Positions 1 through 62,395 of a stretch of 64,000 bases of DNA are shown piece after piece (the first letter of the stretch is position 1; the number at the start of each line of letters is the position of its first letter). Below the pieces are notes generated by a model. That model saw only the letters and a list, made by a program, of their open reading frames with translations, had not been told where the DNA came from and ran no database searches. The stretch is from Thermodesulfobacteriota bacterium (GTDB lineage Bacteria; Desulfobacterota_D; UBA1144; Nemesobacterales; UBA2774), in the NCBI GenBank assembly GCA_021604765.1, contig BQJP01000008.1:918-64917 (forward strand), written 5' to 3'. The position numbers were made by a program, and so were the translations under genes.

Positions 1-735
1 GGGTGTACGGCGCCTAAGCGGGATGAAAATCAGTTACACGCCGCAGTTGTGGAACTAATTGCACACAAAGACGCAACTATCAAATATTCAACTATTCAGA
101 ACTGGTACCCCGGAGACAGTGAGGGTAAAGGTGGAATATACAACTTTGTAACAAAACGTGGCAGATGTCTAGGTAACAACTCTCATATCTCATGGACACA
201 GGTTGAAACCGGATCAGCAATCACCTGGAAATATCCTAGCTGTATTCTTGAAGGTGACAACTCCGTTGGAGAGTTCTATTCAGTAGCGCTTACAAACAGA
301 AAACAGCAGGCAGATACCGGCACTAAAATGATTCACAAAGGAAAAAATACTTCCAGCACAATCATTTCTAAAGGAATTTCGGCTGGTTTTGGGCAAAACA
401 CATATAGAGGATTAGTTGAGATAGGCAAAGACGCTAGCGGCGCTAGAAACTATACTCAGTGCGACTCTATGCTAATTGGGGACAAATGCGGAGCGCACAC
501 ATTCCCATATATTGAGGTAAAAAATTCAACTGCTCAAATGGAACATGAAGCTTCCACTTCTAAAATTGGAGAAGATCAGATTTTCTATTGCCAACAGAGG
601 GGTCTGTCGGCTGAGGACGCAGTATCGTTGATCGTAAACGGTTTTTGCAAAGACGTATTTAAAGAGCTTCCGTTTGAGTTTGCTGTAGAGGCTGAAAAAT
701 TATTAAGCATCAGTCTTGAGGGTAGTGTCGGATAA
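1..735 (+). CDS. sufB: Fe-S cluster assembly protein SufB, C-terminal part (5' end outside window)
   Basis: Translation ...[54 protein letters not shown]... is typical of the SufB C-terminus. Frame 1 is open from base 1. sufC follows immediately. Confidence 0.85.
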
Positions 736-785
736 CACCCCTGCTCTGAATCAAACACAGATAAAGATTTATAAGGAGAAAGAAT

Positions 786-1547
786 ATGTTGGAAATAAAG
801 AATCTACATGCAAGTGTAGAGGGACAGGAAATTCTGAAGGGGCTTAACCTGACTATTAATGCTGGAGAAGTCCATTCTATTATGGGGCCTAACGGATCAG
901 GCAAAAGCACTTTAGCTCAGGTTCTGGCTGGGCGTGATTCTTATGAAATAACAGAGGGTGAAATTTTATTTGAAGGTAAAGACCTGCTTGAGCTAGAACC
1001 TGAAGAACGTGCATGTGAAGGAATTTTTATGGCTTTTCAATACCCGGTAGAGATTCCTGGTGTCGCTAACACATATCTATTGAGAGAAGCATTAAATTCA
1101 GTTCGGAAATACCGTGGGGAAGAACCGCTAAAACACATTGAATTTGCAAAATATGCTAAACAGAAAATGGAAGTCATGCAAATTAGTGACAACTTGCTAA
1201 AACGTGCTGTAAATGAAGGCTTTTCTGGTGGAGAAAAAAAGAGAAACGAAATATTCCAGATGCAGGTATTAGAGCCTAAACTTGCTATTCTAGATGAAAC
1301 TGACTCAGGGCTTGATATTGACGCTCTTAAAGTAGTATCTGACGGTGTAAACGCTCTTAGGAGTCCGGAGCGCGGATTTTTGGTAATAACTCACTATCAA
1401 AGGTTGCTAGATTATATTGTTCCCGATTTTGTTCATGTTTTAGTAGACGGAAAGATTGTAAAAACCGGCGGTAAAGAACTTGCACTTGAGCTTGAGGACA
1501 AGGGCTACGGATGGGTTGAAGAAGAAAAAACAGCGGCTAATAGTTAG
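786..1547 (+). CDS. sufC: Fe-S cluster assembly ATPase SufC
   Basis: Walker A GPNGSGKST and ABC signature FSGGEKKR. 253 aa. RBS AAGGAGAA upstream of the ATG. Confidence 0.9.
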   Translation: MLEIKNLHASVEGQEILKGLNLTINAGEVHSIMGPNGSGKSTLAQVLAGRDSYEITEGEILFEGKDLLELEPEERACEGIFMAFQYPVEIPGVANTYLLREALNSVRKYRGEEPLKHIEFAKYAKQKMEVMQISDNLLKRAVNEGFSGGEKKRNEIFQMQVLEPKLAILDETDSGLDIDALKVVSDGVNALRSPERGFLVITHYQRLLDYIVPDFVHVLVDGKIVKTGGKELALELEDKGYGWVEEEKTAANS

Positions 1548-1558
1548 GGAGATATTTA

Positions 1559-2902
1559 ATGAGTATTACACTATCAGAAAAAGATAACGGATACATTGAA
1601 GGATTTGCTGGATTTAAAAAAAATGCGCCAGGCAGTAGTCTAGATTGGCTGCAATCAGTTCGTGAGCGGGCTATCACAAAGTTTTCAGAGTTGGGATTCC
1701 CTACACCGCAGAATGAAGACTGGCGTTTTACTAATGTCGCACCTATCGCCAGGAGTTCTTTTAACATTTTAGAAAACGGACACGACAAAGTCTCAAGTAG
1801 TGATTTAACTCAATTTCAATTCGAAGATACTGAAGTAGCTGAGCTTGTTTTTATTAACGGGCATTATTCCAAGGAGCTGTCTAAATATGGAAACCTTCCT
1901 GAAGGAGTAATACTTAAAAATCTGGCAGATGCGATTGAGTCAGAACAAGAAATTGTAAAAAGCAACCTAGCTAGATATGCTGATTTCAAAGACGAAGCAT
2001 TCACTGCATTAAATACTGCATTTATGGAAGACGGTGGATTTGTTTATATCCCAAAAGGTATTGTAGTGGAAACTCCCATTCATTTACTTTATATATCAAC
2101 AGATGAAGGCACTCCTTCTATAACAAACCCCAGAAACTTAATAATTGCGGAAGACAACTGTGAGGCAAACGTAATTGAGCACTATACTTCAATGACCGAT
2201 AACATCTATCTTTCAAATGTTGTCACTGAAATCGTTGTAGGTGAAAACAGTACTATCGGACATTACATGATCGAGCTTGAAAGCAAAAAGGCTTTTAACA
2301 TTTCAACACTTAGAGTACAGCAAGCAAGGAGCAGTAACATAAGGTCTCACTCCGTATTGCTTGGGGGCTCACTTGTCAGAAACAACGTTCACCCTGTATT
2401 GGCAGGTGAAGGCTGTGATTCGCTAATTAACGGATTGTATATGCCATCCCACCGCCAGCATATGGACAATTATATGAAAGTAGAGCATGCAAGCCCACAC
2501 TGCGACAGCAGACAGCTATATAATGGAATTCTTGATGGTAGATCTAGAGGAGTATTTCATGGACGAATAATTGTGCATGAAGATGCTCAAAAGACTGATG
2601 CAAAACAGACCAACAGGAACCTTCTACTTTCTGACACTGCCCAAATTGATACAAAACCTCAGCTCGAGATTTATGCTGATGATGTGAAGTGTACTCATGG
2701 AGCCACAATTGGACAGATAGATGAGAACGCTCTATTCTACCTACGCTCAAGAGGTATCTCTAAAGATGCCGCAAGGGACATTATACTCCATGCTTTTACA
2801 AATGAGGCTCTAGAGAGTATGGGTGTTGACTCTGTAAAAAATTACTGCTATAAACTTGTCACCAATTGGTTTGACCAAAGAAAAGAAGAGCAAGAATCTT
2901 AG
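1559..2902 (+). CDS. sufD: Fe-S cluster assembly protein SufD
   Basis: 447 aa placed between sufC and a ferredoxin. The C-terminal beta-helix region (…GATIGQIDENALFYLRSRGI…) is SufD-like. Confidence 0.8.
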   Translation: MSITLSEKDNGYIEGFAGFKKNAPGSSLDWLQSVRERAITKFSELGFPTPQNEDWRFTNVAPIARSSFNILENGHDKVSSSDLTQFQFEDTEVAELVFINGHYSKELSKYGNLPEGVILKNLADAIESEQEIVKSNLARYADFKDEAFTALNTAFMEDGGFVYIPKGIVVETPIHLLYISTDEGTPSITNPRNLIIAEDNCEANVIEHYTSMTDNIYLSNVVTEIVVGENSTIGHYMIELESKKAFNISTLRVQQARSSNIRSHSVLLGGSLVRNNVHPVLAGEGCDSLINGLYMPSHRQHMDNYMKVEHASPHCDSRQLYNGILDGRSRGVFHGRIIVHEDAQKTDAKQTNRNLLLSDTAQIDTKPQLEIYADDVKCTHGATIGQIDENALFYLRSRGISKDAARDIILHAFTNEALESMGVDSVKNYCYKLVTNWFDQRKEEQES

Positions 2903-2933
2903 ATCTCAAGCAGAAACTTATATAGGACTGAAA

Positions 2934-3248
2934 ATGGCTGAATTTGAGAAAGTAGCAAAGGTGTCTGATATTCAACCCGGAGAAATTAAATCATTTGTTT
3001 TAGGCAATGAAATGGTTGCTATCTGCAATACAGATGGGAAATTTTACGCATTTATTGATGAATGTTCTCATCAGACACTCCCCCTCTCAGATGGGTTACT
3101 CGAAGGAAAGACGATTACATGCGCATATCATGGCGCCGAGTTCAATGTCGAGACTGGTGAGGCCCTATGTCTTCCAGCAGTAGATGGCATAGAAACCTAT
3201 GAAGTAAAAATTGAAGGCGACGACATATATATTCTTTTACCAGACTAA
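2934..3248 (+). CDS. Rieske [2Fe-2S] ferredoxin-like protein in the suf operon
   Basis: Rieske boxes CSHQ…(17)…CAYHGAEF. The ORF track begins at 2856, overlapping sufD. The in-frame ATG at 2934 (MAEFEK) avoids that overlap. Confidence 0.7.
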   Translation: MAEFEKVAKVSDIQPGEIKSFVLGNEMVAICNTDGKFYAFIDECSHQTLPLSDGLLEGKTITCAYHGAEFNVETGEALCLPAVDGIETYEVKIEGDDIYILLPD

Positions 3249-3420
3249 AATTAATATATCCCCCCAATTTTCCTAAGTTCCAACCAACAGAAAAATTAGA
3301 ACGTCCGTTCAATCTTTTCAGATAATTTTTAAAAGTGAATGCTAAAATTGTATATAGAAACTTTTACTAATATTCACTATCTAAAATTCGGCGGCATACA
3401 GGCTTTATAGGAGGAGCAAA

Positions 3421-4226
3421 GTTGAAGTTAAAACACCTAATCTCTCTACCACTCTTTTTGATCTTGGTATTATCAATCTCATGTGACAATAACAATTCTG
3501 GCGGTGGCACTGATCCAGAAGGACTTCCGACCGCCTGGCGTGAATTTCAGAAGAATGTTTATAGAATTTCTTGTGAATGACGCAGAAGGCAATATTCTTT
3601 GGGCATCGGGCCGAACAAACAGTCTTGGTGCTATTATTGAGGGTGCTGACGGACCAATCCTACCGACAGAACTTGTCCTTGAGAACCCGCAAGCATTTCA
3701 ACCACACTATCAACAAATTACCTCTGAAGACCAGGTACAGATTTATCAGGAAGTAGTTGCTGATTCTGATGGTGACATTACTACAAGCTTCTTGAGACGT
3801 GTATTTACAATTAAAAACAACAGGATTAGACCGGAAGGATTTGACCCGGCATTCTTTTTTGAAAGTTCATCCCCATTTGAAAGGCAGCTTGCAGAGATTC
3901 CTGGAGAAGCTAAATTTGATCCATATTATACAGACCCTGAACTGACTGGCGCCGACATAATTGAATATGTGATATCACTTGATCCTCAAACTTTGGCAGC
4001 AGTCGACAATGTAAAAGCATCATTGTTTAACCAATCTATTCCACCGTTTTATCTCCAGCAAAGATTTAATGACGCCAACGTAGGTGCTGCAGAAAAAGAG
4101 AATATCCAAAGACTTTACTATCTAACAAGTCATTTGAATACTCAGAATGTTAAAGATGATAGTGGAGAGACATTTATTAAAGATTGGAAGCTAATGCTGG
4201 CGACAGATAGCCAGAATGTTCAATAA
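3421..4226 (+). pseudogene. Putative lipoprotein with an apparent frameshift: signal peptide and lipobox in frame 1, main body in frame 3
   Basis: A strong RBS (AGGAGGAG-N5) precedes TTG 3421. It encodes LKLKHLISLPLFLILVLSISC|DNNNSGGG… (lipobox LSISC) and hits a stop at about 3580. A 247-aa ORF (3483-4226) continues in a different frame with no signal peptide of its own. Confidence 0.4.
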
Positions 4227-22696: not shown

Positions 22697-23053
22697 GTGC
22701 TTTACAACTATATACCAATTCTACTCATACTAATATTTGCAATTGGACTTGCTTCAATAATGCTCGGGCTTTCTTCGCAGTTAGGACCAAAAAGAAAAGC
22801 CAAAGGCAAGCTTGCGCCATATGAATCTGGAATGGCTCCGACTGGGGATACCAGAGGAAAATTTTCAATAAAATATTATTTAGTTGGAGCACTATTTATA
22901 CTATTCGATGTTGAAGCTGTGTTCCTTTTTGCTTGGGCTGTGGTCTTTAAAGATCTAGGAATCCTAGCTTTACTTGAATTAATTGTTTTTCTGATAGTTA
23001 TAATGGCAGGATATTTTTATGTTATTAAAAAAGGAGCATTAGATTGGGAGTAA
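22697..23053 (+). CDS. nuoA: NADH-quinone oxidoreductase subunit A
   Basis: 118 aa with 3 TM. …YESGMAP…FILFDVE… GTG start. Confidence 0.85.
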
Positions 23054-23529
23054 ACGCAGATCCACTAGTTGGTGGAGAGGGTTTTTTAACAACAACAATA
23101 GAAGCTTTCGCAAACTGGGGAAGAAAAAATAGTCTTTGGCCAATGCCCTTTGGAACAGCGTGTTGCGCTATTGAGATGATGGGAGTTTTTGCCTCAAGAT
23201 ACGACCTTTCAAGATTTGGAGCAGAGGTTGCTAGATTTTCCCCGCGTCAAGCTGACTTAATGATAGTTTCAGGAACAATTACCTATAAAATGGCCTCTGT
23301 ATGCAGAAGGATTTACGATCAGATGCCAGAGCCAAAATGGGTAATTGCAATGGGCTCTTGCACATGCGGAGGCGGTCCTTTTGACAGCTATGCAGTTGTA
23401 CAGGGAATAGACGAGTTCCTTCCTGTTGATGTTTATGTAGGAGGCTGTCCTCCGAGACCTGAAGCCCTAATTGATGCAGTTATGAAGATCCAGAAAAAAA
23501 TAGAGATGAAAGGGGCCCCTGTAGTATGA
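23044..23529 (+). CDS. nuoB: NADH-quinone oxidoreductase subunit B
   Basis: …[14 protein letters not shown]… and …[10 protein letters not shown]…GGCPPRPEA… N2-cluster cysteines. Confidence 0.9.
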
Positions 23530-24047
23530 GTTTTGATTTAGAACAGGCGACCGTCTTGCTACAAAACGAGTTTCCGCAAGATATTTTGGATATCAAAGAG
23601 TACAGAAATGAAACTACTCTTCTAATAAAAAAAGACCAAATCCATAGATTCTGCAAACATCTAAAAGACAATTTGGATTTCACTTTTTTAGCTGATTTAA
23701 CTGCAGTTGATTACCTTGAAGTTAAATTACCCCGCTATGAAGTTGTATACCATATTCACAGATTTGGACCTGATTGCGAAGAGAATATCAGAATAAGGCT
23801 TAAAGCTGAGCTGACTGATGATAACCCAAAGATTGACTCGGTTGCATCCATTTGGAGTAGCGCTGATTGGTTGGAAAGAGAAGTATACGATATGTTTGGG
23901 ATTGAATTTACAGGACATCCCGATCTAAGGCGAATCCTAATGCCTGAGGATTACGGACCTTTTCCACTTAGAAAAGATTTTGATGTAAGAAACCGTGAAG
24001 CTTCAAAGGAGTCATTTGAAAAGGCTCTTGAGGACGGTAGGGATTAA
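23526..24047 (+). CDS. nuoC: NADH-quinone oxidoreductase subunit C
   Basis: 173-aa 30-kDa subunit fold …[22 protein letters not shown]…. Confidence 0.85.
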
Positions 24048-25276
24048 TGGAAAGAGTTGAATTCATAAGCGAAGATCAATCAGTAATACACGAGGACGGC
24101 ACCAGAACTGAGACCATGATGCTCAACATGGGACCTCAGCACCCAGCTACACATGGTGTTTTAAGAATCGTGCTCCACTTAGACGGCGAGATGGTTGTAA
24201 AAGCTGTGCCTTATATTGGTTATCTTCACAGAGGAATTGAGAAATTATGTGAGCATATTACTTACCAACAATGCCTGCCTTATACGGATAGGATGGACTA
24301 CATTGCATCCATATGTAACAACATTGGATACATACTTGCTGTTGAAAAACTGCTTGGAATCGAAGAAGAAATACCACAAAGAGCTAAAACGGCTGAAGTT
24401 ATACTATTTGAACTCGGACGAATTGAGTCGCATTTAGTAGGAATCGGAACTAACGCTCTTGATCTAGGGGCAATGAGTGCTTTCCTCTATTGCTTTAAAG
24501 AAAGAGAAAGAATATATGACATACTGGAGACTGTTTGTGGAGCAAGGCTAACCACTTCTTATCCAAGAGTAGGAGGTCTTCCACTTGATTTGCCTGATAA
24601 CTTTGAGGAAGTAGTAAGAAATTTTCTAAAGATATTCCCTAAAACACTGACCGAAGTAGAAAACCTGCTAACTAGAAACAAAATATGGATAGAAAGAACA
24701 AAAGGTGTTGCGGTCATTAGTGCTAAAGACGCGATTGATTTAGGTCTCACAGGGCCAGCTCTGAGAGGTAGCGGTGTGCCGTATGACGTGAGAAAAGCCA
24801 CTCCATATTTAGGATACGAGAATTATGACTTTGAAGTACCTGTAGCAAACGAGGGTGATGCCTACTCCCGTTATCTATGCAGAATGGAGGAAATGCATCA
24901 GAGTTTAAAGATCATACAACAAGCTATAGACAACCTCCCTGACGGACCTTTCATTGCGGATCTCCCTGATATTGTTCTGCCTGAGAAGGAACTTACCTAT
25001 ACCAAAATGGAATCACTTATCAGACATTTTGTAATAGTTTATGAAGGATTCAAACCACCTGCGGGAGAAATACAACACGCCGTTGAAAACCCTAAAGGAG
25101 AGTTATCTTATTACTTGATAAGTGATGGCTCAGGAAAACCTTACAGAATGCGTGTGAGGGGACCATCGTTTGTAAACATGCAGGCTCTTTCTAAAATGGT
25201 AGAAGGCAGTTTAGTCGCTGACGTAATTGCTGCAATCGGAAGCCTTGATATCGTACTGGGAGAGATAGACCGCTAA
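24047..25276 (+). CDS. nuoD: NADH-quinone oxidoreductase subunit D (49 kDa)
   Basis: 409 aa: …MMLNMGPQHPATHGVLR…. Confidence 0.9.
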   Translation: MERVEFISEDQSVIHEDGTRTETMMLNMGPQHPATHGVLRIVLHLDGEMVVKAVPYIGYLHRGIEKLCEHITYQQCLPYTDRMDYIASICNNIGYILAVEKLLGIEEEIPQRAKTAEVILFELGRIESHLVGIGTNALDLGAMSAFLYCFKERERIYDILETVCGARLTTSYPRVGGLPLDLPDNFEEVVRNFLKIFPKTLTEVENLLTRNKIWIERTKGVAVISAKDAIDLGLTGPALRGSGVPYDVRKATPYLGYENYDFEVPVANEGDAYSRYLCRMEEMHQSLKIIQQAIDNLPDGPFIADLPDIVLPEKELTYTKMESLIRHFVIVYEGFKPPAGEIQHAVENPKGELSYYLISDGSGKPYRMRVRGPSFVNMQALSKMVEGSLVADVIAAIGSLDIVLGEIDR

Positions 25277-25464: not shown

Positions 25465-26139
25465 ATGCGTTTATTAATAATAGAAGATGATAAGAAAACG
25501 GCGTCTTTCATTAAGAAAGGTTTTAAACGTGCGGGCTTTACAGTAGATCATGTCTCAGACGGAGAAAAGGCTCTCAATTTATTGCTATCGGAGGCTTATG
25601 ATGCTGCTGTTCTAGATATAATGCTCCCAAAACTAGATGGAATAAGCGTAGTTAAGGAGACTCGAAAGTTGGGTGTACATACTCCTGTAATCATATTAAG
25701 CGCTAAGCACTCCGCCGATGATCGGATAAGGGGGCTCAATTGTGGGGGAGATGATTACCTGGTCAAGCCATTTCTGTTTTCTGAGCTTCTTGCACGTGTG
25801 CACGCTCTCACTAGAAGAAAAAATTATACTATCCAGGATATGAAACTAAATGTCGGAGACCTTCAACTGGATTTTAGTACCAGGGAAGTCTTCAGATCAG
25901 GCAAGAAAATTGAGCTAAGAACAAAGGAATTTGAGCTTCTAGAATATTTTATGCGTAACGAGGGCATTGTACTAATGAAGACTATGATTCTGGAACATTT
26001 ATGGGGTTACAACTTCGAGCCGCAAACGAACGTAGTAGAGGTGCTAGTATGCAATTTAAGAAACAAAATCGAGCACAAAGGCGAGAAAAAGATAATTAAT
26101 ACCATTCGAGGTGTCGGTTATGTCCTTAAGGTTTCTTGA
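25465..26139 (+). CDS. OmpR-family response regulator
   Basis: Receiver domain (D…VLDIMLPKLDG) plus a winged-helix output domain. Confidence 0.85.
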   Translation: MRLLIIEDDKKTASFIKKGFKRAGFTVDHVSDGEKALNLLLSEAYDAAVLDIMLPKLDGISVVKETRKLGVHTPVIILSAKHSADDRIRGLNCGGDDYLVKPFLFSELLARVHALTRRKNYTIQDMKLNVGDLQLDFSTREVFRSGKKIELRTKEFELLEYFMRNEGIVLMKTMILEHLWGYNFEPQTNVVEVLVCNLRNKIEHKGEKKIINTIRGVGYVLKVS

Positions 26140-27517
26140 CAATATTTCGAGAAACGTCGTTACTAGATTGACCCTCTGGTATTCATCTGTATTTATACTG
26201 AGTTTTCTACTCCTATTCGGCATAGCATATTATTACATATATTCATCTATCAAGTATCTTGAGAGACGGGACATTCAGGTTGAGCACAGGGAGTTAACTA
26301 TAAAACATGAAGGCGGTGGGCTACCTGCTCTAAAAGAAGAGCTTGAATTTGAACATAAAGTTGCCGGGACAAATTTTTTCTTTGTTCGACTTATAAATCC
26401 CAAGAACGATATTGTGTTTTTGAATATTCCCGATCAATCAACGGAACTCGACTTTAAAGAGCTGGAAGATATTATCACGAGTGAAAACAAACAATGGATA
26501 CATTTATCCGGCATTAGAGATTTGCATGACTGGGACATTCTATCAAGTTTTCTTAGTAACGGCTTTCTACTACAAGTTGGCAAGAGCACCGAGACTCAGC
26601 TTAGTTTTCTTAATAGGTTCCGCTGGATATTCCTGGCTGTTATGGGCTTTGTGATAACTATTGGAATCGCTGTAGGCGCTATACTTGCAAACCGGGCAGT
26701 CAGACCCGCGCGAACTTTAAACAATACATTGAAATCAATATTAGAAAACAGTGATATACGAGCACGTGTTCCTATTGAGAAAACAGGCGATGAATTTGAT
26801 GGCTTAGCCGCAATGTTCAACACCATGCTGGATAAAAATGAACTCTTAATAACCAGCCTCCGCAGTTCTTTAGAGAACATTGCGCACGACATACGCACTC
26901 CGGTAACAAGATTAATGGGGACTGCCGAATTAGCTTTAGATTCAAAACATGACCCACAAAGCACGAGGGAAGCACTTGATGAATGCATAAAAGAATCGCA
27001 ACAGATAATTACAATACTGAATGCTCTGATGGAGATTTCAGCTGCAGAAAGCGGAGCTATAGAACTTAAGATTGAGAAAACGAATCTCTCAGCACTACTA
27101 AAAGAAGTTGTTGATCTCTATGATTTTATCGCAGAAGGTAAAAACATAACAATCAAGACAAATTTACCGGAGATTCTCACAGCAGGGATTGATAGAAATA
27201 AAATGCGTCAAGCGCTTTCAAATCTAGTTGATAACTCAATCAAATACACCCCGAAAGACGGTAGTGTTGAGATTGAAGCATACGAAAGAGCCAATGAAGT
27301 TTGTGTTAAAATCAGCGATACAGGTGTAGGTATAGACCCCGAGGAAATTGACAGGATATGGGAACGGTTATATCGTGGAGACAAAAGCCGTTCTCAGAAA
27401 GGACTTGGTCTTGGACTGAGCATTGTAAAACCAATTATTGAGGCCCACAAAGGACATATAGAAGTTTCAAGCCAACCCGGCAGGGGTTCAATCTTTACAA
27501 TACATCTACCTAAATAG
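26111..27517 (+). CDS. Sensor histidine kinase (2 TM, periplasmic sensor, HAMP, HisKA, HATPase)
   Basis: H-box …NIAHDIRTP… and G-boxes …DTGVGI… and GLGLGLSIV. It overlaps the response-regulator gene. Confidence 0.85.
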   Translation: MSVMSLRFLDNISRNVVTRLTLWYSSVFILSFLLLFGIAYYYIYSSIKYLERRDIQVEHRELTIKHEGGGLPALKEELEFEHKVAGTNFFFVRLINPKNDIVFLNIPDQSTELDFKELEDIITSENKQWIHLSGIRDLHDWDILSSFLSNGFLLQVGKSTETQLSFLNRFRWIFLAVMGFVITIGIAVGAILANRAVRPARTLNNTLKSILENSDIRARVPIEKTGDEFDGLAAMFNTMLDKNELLITSLRSSLENIAHDIRTPVTRLMGTAELALDSKHDPQSTREALDECIKESQQIITILNALMEISAAESGAIELKIEKTNLSALLKEVVDLYDFIAEGKNITIKTNLPEILTAGIDRNKMRQALSNLVDNSIKYTPKDGSVEIEAYERANEVCVKISDTGVGIDPEEIDRIWERLYRGDKSRSQKGLGLGLSIVKPIIEAHKGHIEVSSQPGRGSIFTIHLPK

Positions 27518-27548: not shown

Positions 27549-27570
27549 AACATTAAATATATTTAATGTT
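27549..27570 (+). promoter_or_regulatory. 22-bp perfect palindrome AACATTAAATA|TATTTAATGTT upstream of the IPTL-CTERM gene
   Basis: Reverse-complement symmetry read directly from the sequence. It lies between the HK stop and the next start. Confidence 0.4.
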
Positions 27571-27654
27571 CATTTAAGCTTAATTTAATCTTGCCGTGTT
27601 AAAATCCTAACAGTAATTCAGATTTATCGATAAATCTAAGGTATGGAGGAATCA

Positions 27655-28899
27655 ATGTATAAAATCATTAGAGGGTACTACCCTCAGTTTATTCTAACAA
27701 TAGTATTTTTATTTGGAGTTATCGGCATGTTCTCAGCCGCACCCGTGGCGCGGGCTGATCTTCTGGTGGGTACTGACGGCCCGCCTGGTTCAGGTGCAGT
27801 TCGCCGTTTCAACAATTTCGGGACATACTTGGGTGATTTCACTACAGGAGGCCCCGGCTTGGACGGACCAGCGGCAGTGCAATTTGGTCCGGACGGCAAC
27901 GTCTACGTATTGAGCGGCAGTAACACAGTACTTCGCTACAACAGCACAACAGGTGTATTTATTGACGAATTCATTCCAACTGGTTCAAACGGTCTGGATG
28001 ATGCAAAGGACATGATATTTGGACCCGACGGCAACTTGTACCTAGCCAATAACGAAAATCCCGCAAACACTATTGGTGAGGGTGGCGAGGTCTTACGCTT
28101 CAACGGTACAACGGGAGCCTTCATGGGCACATTCATACAAAACGGCGCCGGACTGGGACCGCCCACCAATGTCGATACTGTGTCTGAAGCCATGAGCATG
28201 GCTTTCGGACCCGACGGTTTCTTCTACCTAGGAAATGACCCGCGCGAGGTGCTTGATCCTGAGGATGGAGATATACAGGGTTATATGGTTATGCGTTTTA
28301 ACGGCACAACCGGACAGTATATCGACACCCCATTCCCTCCCAATTTCCTGGGTTTGCACGATCCTAACGGCATGACTATCGGACCCGACTGCAATCTATA
28401 CATAAGCAGCGAGGGGCTTTCAAATAATGGTAACCCCCCAAATCCTAATGTTATATACCGTTTGAATCTTACGACCGGGAATAATACACCTGATACCATT
28501 GAAGAATTTGTTCCTTCAAACGGGTTCCTTGACGCCGACTTACCTGGTGGGCAACCAGGGCCCCCTAATAGAGGCATGATAGAGCCTGAGAAGATCGTCT
28601 TCGGTCCTAATGGTGATTTATACGTTACAAGCGGCGATACGGCTGAAGTTTGGCGCTACAATGGTACAACGGGAGCGATAGTTGGTGGCGGAGCGTTTGC
28701 CATGCAGGGGCTCGGTGCGGACTCGTCAGATCCCAAGGGGATTACCTTCTTCCCGGGCGAATCACTCCAGTGTGACATACCATTTCCTGTTGCACAGATT
28801 CCGACTCTTAGTCAATGGGGATTGGTTGCAATGGCAGGAGCTCTAGGAATAATAGCTTTCTTAGTGTTGACTATACGCAGAAAGAAAGCGGTAGCTTAG
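27655..28899 (+). CDS. Secreted 6-bladed beta-propeller-like repeat protein with C-terminal IPTL-CTERM sorting domain
   Basis: Signal peptide. About six repeats of [FGPDGNxY…V.R(F/Y)NGTTG.F…]. C-terminus …IPTLSQWGLVAMAGALGIIAFLVLTIRRKKAVA (IPTLxxWG + TM + basic). ATG 27655 has GGAGG 5 nt upstream. Confidence 0.75.
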   Translation: MYKIIRGYYPQFILTIVFLFGVIGMFSAAPVARADLLVGTDGPPGSGAVRRFNNFGTYLGDFTTGGPGLDGPAAVQFGPDGNVYVLSGSNTVLRYNSTTGVFIDEFIPTGSNGLDDAKDMIFGPDGNLYLANNENPANTIGEGGEVLRFNGTTGAFMGTFIQNGAGLGPPTNVDTVSEAMSMAFGPDGFFYLGNDPREVLDPEDGDIQGYMVMRFNGTTGQYIDTPFPPNFLGLHDPNGMTIGPDCNLYISSEGLSNNGNPPNPNVIYRLNLTTGNNTPDTIEEFVPSNGFLDADLPGGQPGPPNRGMIEPEKIVFGPNGDLYVTSGDTAEVWRYNGTTGAIVGGGAFAMQGLGADSSDPKGITFFPGESLQCDIPFPVAQIPTLSQWGLVAMAGALGIIAFLVLTIRRKKAVA

Positions 28900-29007: not shown

Positions 29008-29034
29008 AGGGAGCTTCGGCTCCCTTTTTGTTTG
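29008..29034 (+). terminator. Rho-independent terminator GGGAGC-TTCG-GCTCCC + T-tract
   Basis: A 6-bp GC-rich stem with a TTCG tetraloop followed by TTTTTGTTT, downstream of the IPTL-CTERM gene. Confidence 0.6.
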
Positions 29035-29129
29035 GTAAGTATGCTAAGCAAGCCATAATATCCTATTCATAATCCCAGCTTAAACTGATCTTAACAAATG
29101 GTGGCATTACAAAATATAGCTGCAACCAA

Positions 29130-55772: not shown

Positions 55773-56381
55773 TTATTCGGCAGGCAACATCTCATTTTCT
55801 TGAGAAGCTTGTATTAATAGGAAACAACCTGTTACAGTGGAAATACTTTCATGAACACTATGTGCATCAGCTCGAATATAATCTCCTTTACCAAAGGTCA
55901 TTCCGCCCATGCTTAACTCACCTTCTATGATGTAACACTCTTCAGCTTCTGCATGAACATGGTCTGGGAAAGTCGATCCAGGATCCATTTTTACAAGAAC
56001 AGTTGAATACTTTCGGGCAGGATCTTCATAAAGCTGTTTTACTTTGACACCATCTACGACTTCAACCCAATCACCTTGATTTTCTCGCACAAATAGATAA
56101 CCGGTTTCCTTCTCTGCTACATCCCTTTCTTTTTGGATTTTTGTAAAAAGTTTATCCTCTAAGCCTCTTGGTTCTTTGCGGGGCTCAGTACTATAAGTTA
56201 CGTCTTCCATTATTTCGTTGAAGTAATCAAGATGCACAGATGCTGAGCCATTTTCTTTAAGCATAGCCTCAAATACTGCTTTATCTTCGTCACCTAAAAC
56301 TCCTAATGCATAAGAAGCAGCCAGATCTTGAATTTCTTCGTCAGTGTACTTTTGACTCATATAAATGTCCTTGTTCTTCAT
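55773..56381 (-). CDS. Cytoplasmic anti-sigma factor: RskA-like N-terminal sigma-binding domain + C-terminal cupin (ChrR-like architecture)
   Basis: N-terminus …LAASYALGVLGDEDKAVFEAML… with no Cys and no TM. C-terminal cupin …VLVKMDPGSTFPDHVH…EECYIIEGEL… It overlaps the ECF sigma gene upstream. Confidence 0.65.
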   Translation of the reverse strand: MKNKDIYMSQKYTDEEIQDLAASYALGVLGDEDKAVFEAMLKENGSASVHLDYFNEIMEDVTYSTEPRKEPRGLEDKLFTKIQKERDVAEKETGYLFVRENQGDWVEVVDGVKVKQLYEDPARKYSTVLVKMDPGSTFPDHVHAEAEECYIIEGELSMGGMTFGKGDYIRADAHSVHESISTVTGCFLLIQASQENEMLPAE

Positions 56382-57021
56382 TAATTATATTCTTCATTTT
56401 AACCATTGCAACTCTGATAGTGCTCTTTACAGATCCTACGGGAATACCAACTTTATCCGCAATTTCACTATGGCTGTACTGATGATAATAAGAAAGCTCC
56501 ACGACCTCTTTTTGCTTAGGTGTGAGTTGAGCCATGGCATGTTTTGTGATTTTTCTCATTTCTGAAGCAACATAAGTATCTTCAGGATTATCTGTTCCCG
56601 TCACCATGCTATCATCAATGCTATCGTCAATGTGAACTGTTTTTGCACTTTTTCTAATCTTATCAATTGAACGGCTCCTGGTAATCATCAATAACCAACT
56701 TAAAGGCTTGCTCAGATCTGAATCATATTTGGATGCGTTGTTCCATACATACATAAATACCTCAAGGGCAACTTCTTCAGCCTCTTCCGGATTAGAAATA
56801 ATCTTATGAGACATACTGTAAACTAGTCTTACAGTTTGTTGGTAAAACGTTCTCATTGCATTTTCATCGCCATTTGAAATTAGCGATAATAATGTTTTTA
56901 ATTCATTTTCCCTGTCAGTGTGCTCAGTAGCAACTGTAGCAGTATCCTGATTCATTTTTTCCCTGTAACTATCTAAGAATAATATGTTAGAATCATTTAT
57001 CTTTGCCATTATATCACACAC
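56341..57021 (-). CDS. ECF sigma factor (cognate to the cupin anti-sigma)
   Basis: Sigma-70 region 2 …EVALEVFMYVWNNASKYD… and region 4 …YSHSEIADKVGIPVGSVKSTI…. Confidence 0.8.
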   Translation of the reverse strand: MCDIMAKINDSNILFLDSYREKMNQDTATVATEHTDRENELKTLLSLISNGDENAMRTFYQQTVRLVYSMSHKIISNPEEAEEVALEVFMYVWNNASKYDSDLSKPLSWLLMITRSRSIDKIRKSAKTVHIDDSIDDSMVTGTDNPEDTYVASEMRKITKHAMAQLTPKQKEVVELSYYHQYSHSEIADKVGIPVGSVKSTIRVAMVKMKNIINEEQGHLYESKVH

Positions 57022-57084
57022 TCTATTCTATATCCAATCATTAAATTACCTTTTTATAGTTACAGAAATACTTATTCGAATAGT

Positions 57085-57112
57085 AATACGACAACTAGAT
57101 CAAATTGGATCA
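57085..57112 (-). promoter_or_regulatory. Autoregulatory ECF promoter TGATCCAA-N14-CGTATT
   Basis: Minus strand: TGATCC (57112-57107), a 16-nt spacer, then CGTATT (57090-57085). It lies upstream of the ECF/anti-sigma operon. Confidence 0.6.
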
Positions 57113-57208
57113 CTTATCTTTGTACTTAAGAAGAAAACATAGAAATGGAGCTGTATTAATAAGAGGTATTCTGCTATGCTTGCAGTAGTTTAGGATAGTT
57201 TGCAAGTT

Positions 57209-57799
57209 CTATTCATCTAATAAATTTAGAGTGTTTTTTAGTTTATCTTTAGCTAGTCTGATTGTGCTTTTTACAGAACCGACAGGCATATCCAACATTT
57301 CTGCAATTTCTGACTGATTGAATTGATAGAAGTAGACAAGCTCTATAACTTTTCTCTGCTTTGGGCTTAATTCCAATAAAGCATCCTGAACGATTTTACG
57401 CTTTTCCTGCCCTAAAACTGTATCTTCCGGGCTAAGATCAGTATTCGTCAATTCTCTTTCGAGCGAATCAGAAATCTCCATGGTGACTTTCCGTGAACGT
57501 AGTTTGTCTATGGCACGTGAGCGTGCAATCATTACAAGCCATGTAGTCGGGTTACTTTGTGAAGGATCAAAATTTGAAGCATTTTTCCAGACATACTTAT
57601 ATACATCTAGGGCAACTTCCTCAGATTCAGATGTATCACTAAGTATTTTCAGCACAAGGCTATATATCAGTCTATTAGACTCATCGTATAATTCACCTAG
57701 TGCATTATCATTTTGTTTTGCAATCTGTGTTAAAAGACGTTGCCATCTTTGATTTCTTTCTAAGGAAGTTTCGGATTTTATATTGATATCTGATGACAT
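57209..57799 (-). CDS. ECF sigma factor
   Basis: Region 2 …EVALDVYKYVWKNASNFD… and region 4 …FNQSEIAEMLDMPVGSVKSTIRLAK…. Confidence 0.8.
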   Translation of the reverse strand: MSSDINIKSETSLERNQRWQRLLTQIAKQNDNALGELYDESNRLIYSLVLKILSDTSESEEVALDVYKYVWKNASNFDPSQSNPTTWLVMIARSRAIDKLRSRKVTMEISDSLERELTNTDLSPEDTVLGQEKRKIVQDALLELSPKQRKVIELVYFYQFNQSEIAEMLDMPVGSVKSTIRLAKDKLKNTLNLLDE

Positions 57800-57990
57800 A
57801 TCTTATCCGTAAGCGGTTATGTAATTTTATACTATACAAAATTAACTGTATAGCGCAGCTAATATTAATTTATCACATAAAGTGAGCGAAATTTCAAAAG
57901 CGGACGTATACATGTTACAAAATATAGAAAAGTTATATGTAATTGTACTTTGATGTTACAAGATGTACCATATTATAATTGAGGAATAGC

Positions 57991-58806
57991 ATGCCTTACG
58001 ACGACAGAATCGAAGAGTTAATATCGGCTTATACACTTGGTGTACTAGACGGTAATGAACTTAAAGAACTCGAAGATTATATAAGAAAAAACCCTGGTGT
58101 TTACCAAGAATTAATCAATGAGAATGAAGCAGTATTCTCTCAGTTAGCTTATGTCCTAAAAGTCTCTAGTCCAAGACCAGGATTACGAAATGAACTATTG
58201 TCAGATATACAAAAAGAAAAAAAGGTTTATGAAATTGAGACCAAACCGCCTTTCTGGCAAAGGTTACAGCCCCTGTGGCTGGGGTTAGGCAGTGCTGTTG
58301 CAGCAATTCTGATAATTTCTCTATTTACCTATAGTTCGTCTCTCAATAACACTGTAAAAGAGCAGCAAGCTAAGATTTCAAATCTTGAGGCTCTTATCTC
58401 CGAAAAAGATTCGGAACTAGCTTTGCTACAAGAAGAATTCGGCTCGCAATCCGAAATGTTAGCGTTTCTTGATAATCCTGAAGTTGTTATTATAAATCTT
58501 GTAAAAACAGAGCCCAATCTAAAAGCTGTGGCCAGAGTGCTCTGGAACCCAGGGGATGATGAAGCACTGTTTTATGGAATAAACCTCCCGGAGGTTCCTG
58601 AAGGCAAGACTTACCAATTATGGGCAATAGCAGGAGAAAAGCCTGAAAGCCTGGGTGTATTTAATGTTGACAATCATGGCAACAATGTTCATCTAATAAA
58701 ATCTCTCAGTAATTTTGGTGACATCGGTACTTTTGCAGTCAGCCTTGAGCCAGCAGGCGGGGTTCCTCTACCTACCGGGAAGGTATATCTAGCCGGTGAA
58801 ATTTAG
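57991..58806 (+). CDS. Membrane anti-sigma factor (RskA / anti-sigma-K type)
   Basis: N-terminus …LISAYTLGVLDGNELKELEDY…, a single TM (…LGLGSAVAAILIISLF…), and a periplasmic C-domain. It is divergent from the ECF gene at 57799, with its own TTGATG-18-TATAAT promoter. ATG 57991 has GAGGA upstream. Confidence 0.7.
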   Translation: MPYDDRIEELISAYTLGVLDGNELKELEDYIRKNPGVYQELINENEAVFSQLAYVLKVSSPRPGLRNELLSDIQKEKKVYEIETKPPFWQRLQPLWLGLGSAVAAILIISLFTYSSSLNNTVKEQQAKISNLEALISEKDSELALLQEEFGSQSEMLAFLDNPEVVIINLVKTEPNLKAVARVLWNPGDDEALFYGINLPEVPEGKTYQLWAIAGEKPESLGVFNVDNHGNNVHLIKSLSNFGDIGTFAVSLEPAGGVPLPTGKVYLAGEI

Positions 58807-59351: not shown

Positions 59352-59930
59352 ATGAATAAAACACCGGAAAATACAAATCATTCAGACTTGCAACTGATAG
59401 AGGAAATTGTGGATAGCAACAAAGAGGCGTTTAAAGCTCTCTATGAAAAGTATGTACGGCAGGTTTTCTCTTTTGTTTACAAAATAACGAGGGATTCAAA
59501 GCTTACAGAGGAAGTTGTAAACGATACCATGTTTGAGGTTTGGAAAGGTGCTGCAAATTTCAAAGGAAATTCAACTGTATTGACGTGGATTTTTGGAATT
59601 GCACATAACAAATCGATGAACGAGCTTAGAAAGAAAAGACCTGAAGCCCTCGATCCTGAAGAGTTCTCAAGATTTGCAAGTTCCGATGAAACTGCGGAGG
59701 AAATTGTGGTGAAGAAAGATAGATCAGAAAGAATGAATTATGCTATGAGCGAACTTTCCCCAGAGCATAGAACAGTTTTAGAGCTTACTTTTTATAACGG
59801 TTTGTCATATCAGGAAATAGCAGAAATTATGGAATGTCCCGTAAATACAGTAAAAACCAGGATGTTTTATGCAAAAAATAAGCTTAAGGAAAGTCTCAGT
59901 AAATACGGAATCAATCAACAGGAGTTATAG
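59352..59930 (+). CDS. ECF sigma factor
   Basis: Region 2 …EEVVNDTMFEVWKGAANF… and region 4 …LSYQEIAEIMECPVNTVKTRM…. Confidence 0.8.
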   Translation: MNKTPENTNHSDLQLIEEIVDSNKEAFKALYEKYVRQVFSFVYKITRDSKLTEEVVNDTMFEVWKGAANFKGNSTVLTWIFGIAHNKSMNELRKKRPEALDPEEFSRFASSDETAEEIVVKKDRSERMNYAMSELSPEHRTVLELTFYNGLSYQEIAEIMECPVNTVKTRMFYAKNKLKESLSKYGINQQEL

Positions 59931-59932
59931 CT

Positions 59933-60643
59933 ATGAGCGATAAAAATATATCACACGAAGAAATCAATCTTCTTCTCCCATGGTACTTAAACGGAACACT
60001 TGAGTCAGAGGAAAAAGAGATAGTAAAGAAACATCTCTCAGACTGTTCGCTATGTCATATGGAAATTGAAGAGCTCAAAATGTTGAGAAGCACCGTACTG
60101 GAAGCTAACGAAGCTCAGAATGAAATGCTAAGTGTCCCTGTTGAAAAGATGGAAATGAACGTCATGGATAGAATTGACTCCTTTGAGGAATCGATTGAGC
60201 AAAAAACTCAAAGGGTTCCAATTGATGATACAGATTCAATATGGTCCAAGGTGCAGGGATTCTTTGATGGGATCGCCCTACCTTCACTATCACCAGTAGG
60301 AATGGCCGCACTTTTTGTCATACAGTTTGCAATTATATTAGGTCTGGCCGGGACGCTATTTTTTACAGAGCCTGAGTATGAAGTCCTTAGCGGAAACACC
60401 CAGACTGAAGTAATTAGCGGGCCGACGATTATGCTTTCATTCAAAGACAGTGCAACAGAAAAAGAAATACGCGAAATTTTAAGGGAAATTGATGGCCGAA
60501 TAATTGACGGTCCCAAAGCTGGTGGATTATATATTGTAGAGTTACCTGAAGAAATGACTAATGAGAAAATAATGGAAAATGTAATTGATGATCTGAGCTC
60601 AAATACAAAAGTGATAAAAAATGTCTTTAAGGGAAGCAAGTAA
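59933..60643 (+). CDS. Membrane anti-sigma factor with zf-HC2-type N-terminus
   Basis: H..DCSLCHMEIEEL (HxxxCxxC), one TM (…ALFVIQFAIILGLAGTLFF…), and a periplasmic C-domain. Confidence 0.65.
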   Translation: MSDKNISHEEINLLLPWYLNGTLESEEKEIVKKHLSDCSLCHMEIEELKMLRSTVLEANEAQNEMLSVPVEKMEMNVMDRIDSFEESIEQKTQRVPIDDTDSIWSKVQGFFDGIALPSLSPVGMAALFVIQFAIILGLAGTLFFTEPEYEVLSGNTQTEVISGPTIMLSFKDSATEKEIREILREIDGRIIDGPKAGGLYIVELPEEMTNEKIMENVIDDLSSNTKVIKNVFKGSK

Positions 60644-60676
60644 ATAAGGTATTTTTATTGCTAAGGTCAAATTGAT

Positions 60677-62395
60677 ATGTTGAGAATGAAAATAAACATA
60701 ATAATAGTTGTTTTAATATATGTCTTTTGTTTAGCATATATTGCTGGTGCCCAGGAGAATAAGCCACCTAGCAATCCCAATATTCCTACTAATCCTAATG
60801 ACCCAACTTTCCCAAGAGATCCGAATCAAGGACAACGCATCATCGTACCACCACCGAATAAAGTAATTGTAATCCCGGATGTAGATGATAATCCCAGAAT
60901 ACCGGACAATAACCCTAATAAGCCAGACCGTAACCCACCACGAATACCTGACTATCCAAATAATCCAGGCAGAGTACCCGGTACTCCTGACAGATTAGAT
61001 CCTGAGCCTGAAATACCAAGAGAGCCTATCGCTGAACCAGAGATCCCAAGGGACCCCGTCGCTGAGCCTGATATTCCAACTGTGCCGGATGTACCTGAGC
61101 AACCACAAGGTGTACCAAAAGATCCTGTTGTTGATCAAAATGACCCCAATATTCCCAGACCTGATGACCAAATACCGGCCGCACCAAAACTTCCGGATGA
61201 CCCTTCATTAATTCAGCCTGACATGGAAACTGAATTTCTCACAGCTCCGGTATTTAAAGATGTAACACCCAAAATATTAGAAAGCGACCTAAATAATTAT
61301 ATCCCGAATCAAGTACTGGTGTTGTTAGAGGGCTCGTCAGAAAAGCAGCAAGACATTGATTCTCTGTCCCAAAGCTATAACATTAATAGTATAGACAGTT
61401 CTGTACTAAGCTCTATAAATGCTACTATGGTGCTTTTTGAAATACCTGACAACAGAGGTGTCATTGACGTCTCTAGAACCCTGGCAGCGGATTCAAGAAC
61501 TTTAGCCGCTCAACCTAATTTTTACTTCGAGGGCATGAGCGAAAACAACATTCAATATGGTGTACAGAAGATTAAAGCTGATTCTGCACATAGTATTTCT
61601 ACCGGGAAGGGGATAAAAGTGGCAGTAATAGATACTGGTATAGATTACAGTCATAAAGCTATAGCAAATAAAATATTTATGAAATCAGATTTTGTGGATA
61701 CAGGCTCCTATGAGTTTGATGTACACGGAACATCAATAGCCGGGATTATTGCTTCAACATCAATTGAAGACGGTATAACCGGAGTAGCGCCTGACGTTAA
61801 GATAATTGCAGCAAGAGCTTGTTGGAAAGATCCCAAAAATAAAATTAATACCCTATGTTCATCTAATACTCTTGCTAAAGCACTAAACTACGCCATTTTA
61901 AATAAAGCGCATATCATAAACTTGAGTTTAGGCGGTCCAAAGGACAATATCGTTTCCCTGCTGATAACTAAAGCTAGTAGAGCTGGTATTGTGATAGTTG
62001 CTGCTGCTGGTAATGGAGGCCCCAAAGGCAAGCCGGTCTATCCTGCGGCTTTAAAGGAGGTAATTGCTGTTTCTGCAACTGATTCAGATGATAAACTCTA
62101 CCAATCCTCGACCAGAGGTAAGTATATAGATTTATCAGCACCTGGTGTAGATATCTTAAGTACTGCTCCTGGAAACTCCTGGCAGGTTATTTCAGGAACA
62201 TCCATGGCCGCGGCTCATGTAACAGGGGCTATAGCACTGGTTCTTCAGAAACACCCTGAGTTATCAGCGTTTCAAATGAAAAGCTTGCTTGGATCTACTT
62301 CCATAGATCTGGGCAAGAAAGGCAAAGATATTGAGTTTGGAGAGGGTAGAATAGATGCTTTAAGCGCTCTTCACAAATTAAAGACTAACCCCTAA
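60677..62395 (+). CDS. Secreted subtilisin-like S8 serine protease with N-terminal Pro-rich low-complexity region
   Basis: Signal peptide, about 150 aa of P/D/N/E-rich repeats (…PEIPREPIAEPEIPRDPVAEPDIP…), and the catalytic triad VIDTGID / HGTSIAG / GTSMAAAHVTG. Confidence 0.85.
   Translation: MLRMKINIIIVVLIYVFCLAYIAGAQENKPPSNPNIPTNPNDPTFPRDPNQGQRIIVPPPNKVIVIPDVDDNPRIPDNNPNKPDRNPPRIPDYPNNPGRVPGTPDRLDPEPEIPREPIAEPEIPRDPVAEPDIPTVPDVPEQPQGVPKDPVVDQNDPNIPRPDDQIPAAPKLPDDPSLIQPDMETEFLTAPVFKDVTPKILESDLNNYIPNQVLVLLEGSSEKQQDIDSLSQSYNINSIDSSVLSSINATMVLFEIPDNRGVIDVSRTLAADSRTLAAQPNFYFEGMSENNIQYGVQKIKADSAHSISTGKGIKVAVIDTGIDYSHKAIANKIFMKSDFVDTGSYEFDVHGTSIAGIIASTSIEDGITGVAPDVKIIAARACWKDPKNKINTLCSSNTLAKALNYAILNKAHIINLSLGGPKDNIVSLLITKASRAGIVIVAAAGNGGPKGKPVYPAALKEVIAVSATDSDDKLYQSSTRGKYIDLSAPGVDILSTAPGNSWQVISGTSMAAAHVTGAIALVLQKHPELSAFQMKSLLGSTSIDLGKKGKDIEFGEGRIDALSALHKLKTNP

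Follow-up and report, generated by a model that had tools for sequence, protein, structure and literature searches.

An IPTL-CTERM-tagged propeller gene of a Thermodesulfobacteriota bacterium, its neighbouring OmpR-family two-component system and a conserved 22-bp palindrome

We analyzed a stretch of 64,000 bp from contig BQJP01000008.1 of a Thermodesulfobacteriota bacterium (assembly GCA_021604765.1). The whole stretch, referred to here as the window, has a G+C content of 38 %. It contains three co-directional genes, which encode an OmpR-family response regulator, a sensor histidine kinase and a beta-propeller protein with a predicted signal peptide, followed by a convergent lolA/ftsK pair (Table 1). 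The propeller protein ends in an IPTL-CTERM sorting domain, and a perfect palindrome of 22 bp lies between the kinase and propeller genes. The interpretation that we consider probable, if not secure, is that the propeller is a tail-sorted envelope protein, controlled by the adjacent CusRS/HprRS-like two-component system via the palindrome and processed by exosortase H (XrtH).

The list of open reading frames (ORFs) in the window gives the propeller gene as 27643..28899 on the plus strand, with a product of 418 aa. Its true start is the ATG at 27655, because the Shine–Dalgarno sequence, the NCBI gene model P0001 and the orthologue alignments all agree on this codon. The resulting protein (414 aa, followed by the stop codon) is 100 % identical to P0001, annotated as hypothetical protein DHS20C13_10680 of Thermodesulfobacteriota bacterium. 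A preliminary description of the locus had given the span 27549–28899: its right end is indeed the end of the gene, whereas its left end is the first position of the palindrome. The signal peptide has a basic n-region with K and R residues, a hydrophobic core and an A-x-A site (A-R-A) at its terminus, ...PVARA, with cleavage predicted before DLLVG. It was called by reading the sequence and from its conservation in orthologues rather than with a dedicated predictor, and the call is therefore partly inferential. A lipoprotein reading was rejected, as the lipobox cysteine is lacking. The propeller gene is followed, ahead of the convergent lolA-like gene, by an intrinsic terminator composed of a hairpin at 29008–29025 and a T tract.

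Table 1. Features of the regulator–kinase–propeller locus, in window coordinates.
Feature	Coordinates	Strand	Basis or details
OmpR-family response regulator, 224 aa	25465..26139	+	Pfam Response_reg and Trans_reg_C
Sensor histidine kinase, 468 aa as ORF (465 aa as called in L001)	26111..27517	+	Pfam HAMP, HisKA, HATPase_c
22-bp perfect palindrome AACATTAAATATATTTAATGTT, candidate operator	27549..27570	.	Exact, unique in the window, longest perfect palindrome there
Conserved stretch from operator to -10 (TTTAAGC...TTTAATCTTG)	27571..27596	+	Orthologue alignment
Extended -10 element TGTTAAAAT (TGnTAnAAT in orthologues), putative	27597..27605	+	8 of 8 loci, fixed spacing
18-bp perfect palindrome AGATTTATCGATAAATCT in the 5' leader	27620..27637	.	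Palindrome scan
Propeller gene	27655..28899	+	Shine–Dalgarno GGAGG at 27645–27649
Predicted Sec-type signal peptide, residues 1–34	27655..27756	+	Read from sequence; helix 3–27 in the model; conserved in orthologues
Six-bladed NHL-type beta-propeller	27760..28749	+	AlphaFold2 model, Foldseek, profile matches
Short stalk, residues 366–381, with Cys373	28750..28797	+	Orthologue alignment
IPTL-CTERM sorting domain	28798..28896	+	TIGR04174 and PF18203 scores; model helix 387–413
IPTLSQWG motif, residues 382–389	28798..28821	+	
Transmembrane helix LVAMAGALGIIAFLVLTI, residues 390–407	28822..28875	+	Hydrophobic 18-mer
Basic cluster RRKK, residues 408–411	28876..28887	+	
Intrinsic terminator AGGGAGC-TTCG-GCTCCCT then TTTTTGTTTGG	29008..29035	+	7 pairs, 5 of them G-C; T-rich tail

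The structure of the propeller protein was predicted with AlphaFold2 on the basis of 59 homologues (pLDDT 86.5, pTM 0.84). The model consists of an N-terminal helix corresponding to the signal peptide, 24 strands arranged in six four-stranded blades (residues 36–77, 83–122, 128–184, 189–242, 248–316 and 322–365) and a C-terminal transmembrane (TM) helix. The motif R[FYL]N..TG is present six times in the sequence, and [FI]GP[DN][GC] five times together with a degenerate sixth copy (FFPGE). The family profile matches the Pizza designs (Pizza6), the sensor domain of PknD and the NHL domains of TRIM2 and TRIM71 with E-values from 1e-11 to 1e-21. Foldseek comparison of the model gives target-normalised TM-scores of 0.73–0.79, the lower value for the TRIM71 NHL domain and the upper for Pizza6. 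The six-bladed, NHL-like propeller proposed in the preliminary description is thus confirmed, also by the structure prediction that it had suggested as a check.

The protein shares with PknD, TRIM71/Lin41 and Pizza the six four-stranded blades, but differs from them in carrying long insertions in blades 3 and 5 and in having an identity of 13–17 % to the solved structures. As a single sequence it reaches 18.8 bits against the Pfam NHL family (PF01436), compared with a gathering threshold of 20, and no stretch passes alone; many of its homologues carry PF01436. The earlier suggestion that the degenerate repeat constitutes a new subfamily did not hold. The blade consensus, FGPDGNLYV...VLRYNGTTGAFID, is common to the 59 diverse homologues, 2719 of the 8000 candidates scored are homologues at E <= 0.001, and the family profile matches NHL domains. 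The repeat is thus an ordinary blade of the NHL type, two long insertions aside. Cys246 of blade 5 and Cys373 of the stalk are both present in 12 of the 15 orthologues and both absent in the remaining three. This pairing suggests a probable disulfide that would link stalk and blade, as would suit a protein located outside the cytoplasm.

Could the propeller be a periplasmic enzyme that is not displayed on the surface, with a tail needed for maturation and release only, as proposed for ScyD, ScyE and ScyF? The ScyD/ScyE family (NF033206) is the top whole-protein match in NCBIfam (37.8 bits, E 1.6e-9), and lactonases and peptidyl-hydroxyglycine lyase are among the other fold neighbours recovered by Foldseek. 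ScyD, ScyE and ScyF are PEP-CTERM proteins that need CrtB (cyanoexosortase B); they are reported to occur abundantly in the periplasm, with no data placing them on the outer membrane (PMC12188702). They resemble the protein studied here in combining a related propeller body with an exosortase-type C-terminal tag, and the likeness would extend to inducible genes and to proteins acting outside the cytoplasm. The Scy proteins differ, however, in their tag and processing enzyme, the score of the propeller lies far below the family cut-off of 80, and there is no biosynthetic cluster at this locus. The SMP-30/gluconolactonase domain (PF08450) is not matched in the Pfam scan, no catalytic residues were identified, and the orthologues have no invariant His or Cys. 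Moreover, the literature searched contains a single localised IPTL-CTERM protein, which makes up the S-layer in Methylomirabilis lanthanidiphila (PMC8671808). We therefore regard the enzyme interpretation as rather unlikely. The more specific assignment to SMP-30/lactonase enzymes was rejected, since the match to PF20067 (SSL_N) spans only 19 residues (312–330), corresponding to one blade motif.

The C-terminal domain ends with the residues AVA after the basic cluster. It scores 28.9 bits against TIGR04174 (cut-off 20.5) and 29.4 bits against PF18203 (cut-off 20.8). Both curated cut-offs of these hidden Markov models (HMMs) are exceeded, and the tripartite arrangement of IPTLxxWG, TM helix and basic cluster recognised in the preliminary description is upheld. 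That description had also named what would speak against it; we found that the tail does score on the HMM and that the protein is not of a housekeeping type occurring untagged. The tail is kept in all 15 orthologues (56–87 % identity), with P383, W388 and G389 invariant. The model for midcut-by-XrtH proteins (NF033207) gives 27.1 bits against a cut-off of 45 and matches the tail (residues 380–414) alone, the motif being C-terminal here.

Distant homologues of the propeller body carry other tags: PEP-CTERM (PF07589; for instance P0018, 47 % identity) or the tail of the type IX secretion system (T9SS; PF18962). This suggests that the propeller body is a cargo module, which appears to bear whichever sorting tag its host employs. 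In a scan of the genome collection, the matches listed are all distant propellers (29–43 % identity) from Planctomycetota, Acidobacteriota, Cyanobacteria and others, with none of the orthologues among them. Among those listed loci, an IPTL tail is found only in L060, a Dadabacteria metagenome-assembled genome (MAG). Candidatus Dadabacteria belongs to Thermodesulfobacteriota in the NCBI taxonomy, and it is therefore plausible that the window, too, derives from a Dadabacteria-like organism.

The tail of the propeller belongs to the class WGL[IV]AMAG.LGI. It is the only IPTL-tailed ORF within the window, while one or two further tails of the same class are encoded on two contigs of related organisms (L148 and L150; neighbours 48–65 % identical). 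With the 50-aa tail as query, no candidates came up in a homology search, and a tblastn comparison with plasmids yielded chance matches only (E of about 2 and above), the best of them without an exosortase nearby.

The window also contains genes for an extracytoplasmic function (ECF) sigma factor, an anti-sigma factor and an S8 subtilisin-like protease, at 59352–62395. The same trio (65, 50 and 48 % identity) is present in L148 at 61–3617, directly downstream of an IPTL-CTERM gene of the tail class WGLIAMAG..G. Immediately upstream of the trio in the window are two ECF-sigma-like ORFs on the minus strand (56341–57021 and 57209–57799) and an anti-sigma-like ORF (57979–58806), all three read from sequence only. 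The region from 56341 to 58806 and the adjoining trio together hold three sigma/anti-sigma sets within 6 kb.

According to the preliminary description, the enzyme that processes the IPTL-CTERM signal had not been identified. This is no longer accurate, as XrtH is already curated as NCBIfam TIGR04177 (JGI name 'exosortase H (IPTLxxWG-CTERM-specific)') and we recovered XrtH genes beside IPTL-tailed genes. A metagenome scan for the IPTL(S/T)EWG coding pattern yielded 120 loci with 121 genuine IPTL tails, and the multi-TM ORFs in these loci include one recurrent family. All five members of this family that were scanned pass TIGR04177 (92–218 bits, cut-off 86). A profile made from these five detected ten strong XrtH-like ORFs (132–261 bits) and one weak, truncated match (28 bits), located beside tails. 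Cys, Arg and His residues are invariant among the metagenome XrtH-like ORFs; these three residues form the catalytic triad of exosortases and archaeosortases. A family adjoining XrtH scores 31.9 bits on NF041730, 'exosortase H-associated membrane protein', just below the cut-off of 35, and the gene order in L169 is IPTL gene, XrtH, associated protein. IPTL-CTERM thus has a dedicated candidate enzyme.

A related layout was seen in L205 (887–3932), where a gene for a 703-aa protein lies immediately upstream of an XrtH gene. The protein contains IPTLSEWG in its middle part, followed by more TM segments, an arrangement that agrees with what the NCBIfam name 'midcut-by-XrtH' implies.

The Pfam domains of the two genes upstream of the propeller gene bear out the OmpR/histidine kinase pair of the preliminary description. 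In the kinase, two TM segments flank a periplasmic domain of about 125 aa, followed by the HAMP, HisKA and HATPase_c domains. The top NCBIfam matches of the regulator are TIGR01387 (242.4 bits over the full length, cut-off 279.2), CusR (NF007346, 221 bits) and HprR (210 bits), and that of the kinase is the heavy-metal sensor kinase family TIGR01386 (226 bits over the full length, cut-off 292.55). Judged by these scores, the closest families of the regulator appear to be CusR/CopR/HprR.

The regulator–kinase–propeller trio is kept in eight orthologue loci, which represent at least six distinct flanking contexts. In the window, lolA/ftsK follow downstream, and L213 (P0003), where the kinase gene is cut by the contig end, has the same flanks. 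The flanks differ in L002/L003 (P0006), L004 (P0004), L005 (P0013) and L206 (P0011). In L209 (P0009) the kinase gene is again cut by the contig end, and L215 (P0007) is a short contig with no flanks visible. The different flanks of L002, L004, L005 and L206 indicate that the trio moves as a unit. Compared with the window pair, the regulators are 60–79 % and the kinases 52–74 % identical (these four loci included), and both diverge in step with the propeller. The most distant orthologue examined (P0015, 57 % identity; L207, 2146–5722) has no two-component system, and a dCache-HAMP-nucleotidyl cyclase sensor is encoded upstream of it. At this locus the palindrome is missing and the IPTL tail is kept.

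This linkage could also mean that the propeller assists the kinase as an accessory co-sensor. With its C-terminal helix in the inner membrane, it would face the periplasm, bind a signal or the 125-aa domain of the kinase and modulate signalling, with the tail acting mainly as an anchor. CpxP, MgrB, TorT and ExoR act as accessory modulators of their kinases, and accessory proteins are often targets of their own two-component system. The three-gene linkage is strict down to 52 % kinase identity; the NHL propeller of Mycobacterium tuberculosis PknD, one of the best hits by sequence (1rwi, E 1e-12), is an extracellular sensor domain; and XrtH is absent from the surrounding 64 kb. We nevertheless consider a co-sensor unlikely. 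The three invariant residues of the IPTL motif would be needless for a mere anchor, the L207 orthologue keeps the tail without an adjacent two-component system, and the PEP-CTERM and T9SS tails of the distant homologues are export or sorting tags.

Several neighbouring regions of the cassette loci are of interest in their own right. In the window, nuoA-D-like genes (22697–25276) end before the two-component system, which comes next on this strand in place of more nuo genes; NuoC and NuoD were identified from their translations only. In L002 (14199–18203), the cassette is followed 3 kb further downstream by a paralogous regulator and kinase (65 and 42 % identical to those of the window) and then by two secreted proteins without Pfam matches, which suggests that the layout of a sensor plus an exported target has been duplicated there. 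In L206 (4268–6304), a TIR-domain gene (CAP12-PCTIR) and a transposase pair directly follow the cassette, hinting that the cassette can occupy mobile or defence-rich DNA.

The perfect 22-bp palindrome noted in the preliminary description was confirmed. When the window was simulated with a first-order Markov model, 2 % of the simulations contained a perfect palindrome of at least this length. All eight loci with the two-component system have retained the element; in these, its arms follow the pattern A(C/G/T)ATTAA...TTAAT(G/C/A/T)T and its central 6 bp drift. In L206, a C-to-G substitution in one arm is matched by a G-to-C substitution in the other, so that the sequence is again a perfect 22-mer, AAGATTAAATATATTTAATCTT (AAGATT...AATCTT). 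The centre of the palindrome is located exactly 40 nt before the -10 hexamer of TGnTAnAAT in each of the eight loci, which would place it at about -52 relative to the transcription start. In the window no second site of this kind stands out (one match with three mismatches, against 1.5 expected by chance).

The element at 27597–27605 would act as an extended -10 promoter element. A sigma-70 scan found no canonical -35/-10 pair at the proposed promoter, where a good -35 hexamer is lacking. This fits a promoter that may depend on an activator. With a weak promoter of this type and the intrinsic terminator downstream, the propeller gene probably forms its own transcription unit.

Among the perfect palindromes of the window, just two reach 18 bp or more, and they share this one intergenic region; simulation predicts 0.36 per window. 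Shuffled sequences fold as well as the leader RNA does (z = -0.11), and the leader has no match in Rfam. A riboswitch or attenuator in the leader was rejected.

A close parallel to this arrangement is found in the E. coli CusRS/HprRS systems. These likewise comprise an OmpR-family regulator and a periplasm-sensing kinase, and the best-matching families are the same. The spacer between E. coli cusR and cusC carries a 22-bp inverted repeat, AAAATGACAATTTTGTCATTTT, so that the CusR box, like the palindrome described here, lies beside the operon and upstream of the adjacent target. CusR and HprR have each been described as controlling one target only, which lies next to the regulator (PMC8249747). 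The CusR/HprR clade provides a precedent for a palindromic box among OmpR-family proteins. There are also differences: the scores obtained here are below the family cut-offs, and the operator reads ACATTAA...TTAATGT rather than ATGACAA..TTGTCAT. Where E. coli has an RND efflux pump or hiuH/msrPQ as the target, the target here is a propeller protein, encoded downstream on the same strand instead of being divergently transcribed.

Alternatively, the palindrome may have nothing to do with the adjacent regulator. It might be bound by another dimeric factor or, as AT-rich DNA, by a nucleoid protein, or it could be left over from a hairpin that ended the kinase transcript. The element is AT-rich, its central 6 bp are not conserved, no similar element is present upstream of the regulator gene, and most OmpR-family regulators bind direct repeats rather than palindromes. 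On the other hand, the palindrome co-occurs with the two-component system, being present in 8 of 8 loci with it and absent from the one without it (L207). Together with the invariant spacing to the -10 element, this makes a site for another factor less likely. The compensatory double substitution in L206 also speaks against an unrelated element, as does the use of a 22-bp palindrome by CusR and HprR, the closest characterised regulators. As for a transcript hairpin, one made of A/T only and without a T-tract would be a poor terminator, and none is called there. Taken together, we find it improbable that the palindrome is unrelated to the regulator. The regulatory link to the adjacent two-component system, which had been proposed from gene position and the palindrome, gains support from the conserved cassette, the fixed spacing and the CusR/HprR-like regulator.

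The mechanism that we favour, in which the two-component system controls a tail-sorted envelope propeller, would proceed as follows. The kinase would sense a periplasmic signal, and the phosphorylated regulator would most likely bind the 22-bp palindrome as a dimer and activate the promoter that lacks a -35 hexamer. The Sec signal peptide would carry the propeller protein across the inner membrane, after which the protein would fold outside the cytoplasm, probably with a disulfide between Cys246 and Cys373. The tripartite C-terminal domain would hold it in the inner membrane. XrtH, if the genome encodes it outside the window, would cut the protein at the IPTL motif and either free it or attach it anew, with the cell surface, proposed in the preliminary description, as one possible end point. 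The cleavage step is proposed because of the analogy with other sorting systems, in which PEP-CTERM pairs with exosortase and PGF-CTERM with archaeosortase A; XrtH processing of this particular protein is likewise put forward by analogy. The propeller would be the local, and possibly the only, output of the sensor, with a putative binding or enzymatic role in the envelope.

The tail shows the hallmarks of known IPTL-CTERM/XrtH systems: it scores above both cut-offs, it is accompanied by an N-terminal signal peptide, and, as is usual for such tags, it is attached to an unrelated extracytoplasmic domain. The locus differs from these systems in having only one IPTL gene in the 64 kb and in belonging to a low-GC (38 %) Thermodesulfobacteriota MAG.

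A number of observations count against the favoured mechanism. No XrtH was detected within the window by hmmsearch --max (best E 7.4), nor in a scan of its multi-TM ORFs. The XrtH-linked tails of the metagenome loci are of classes other than WGL(I/V)AMAG..G, and the literature searched does not name XrtH at all and contains no report of its activity on IPTL-CTERM. On the regulatory side, the heavy-metal families score highest for both the regulator and the kinase, yet these scores stay below the curated cut-offs. Most OmpR-family regulators bind direct repeats, and the real site could instead be the TTTAAK-like repeats at 11-bp spacing, which are contained in the conserved stretch between the palindrome and the -10 element (27571..27596). 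With regard to the enzyme, two long XrtH contigs, L211 and L212, have no genes in common with the window and differ in tail class, and none of the other multi-TM ORFs near tails of the class seen here matched the XrtH profile; judged by reading their sequences alone, these look like unrelated membrane proteins.

It would be a long shot that, in these possibly Dadabacteria-like bacteria, the locus represents a CusRS/HprRS-type sensor rewired to an inducible tail-sorted propeller as its sole local output. The result would be a new envelope response module, in which the propeller might, for example, be a coat protein that captures metals, oxidants or ligands, or a co-sensor providing feedback. 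It would likewise be a long shot that the lineage lacks XrtH and that its distinct tail class, WGL[IV]AMAG.LGI, depends for processing on a so far unrecognised enzyme.

Much of what is found at this locus is already known by type: the exported NHL propeller, the IPTL tail and XrtH as the predicted enzyme, so that the view of IPTL-CTERM as an orphan signal is outdated. IPTL-CTERM/XrtH is one among many sorting systems defined by comparative genomics alone, and the cassette opens no new class of system. The new part is that a two-component system resembling copper sensors and a conserved, palindromic candidate operator accompany the propeller. This is a modest but testable finding in a poorly studied lineage. 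The cassette offers a compact test case, with one sensor pair, one operator sharply defined by its invariant spacing and one tagged substrate. It is suited to studying both the use of a palindromic site by an OmpR-family regulator and the timing of the production of a tail-sorted envelope protein.

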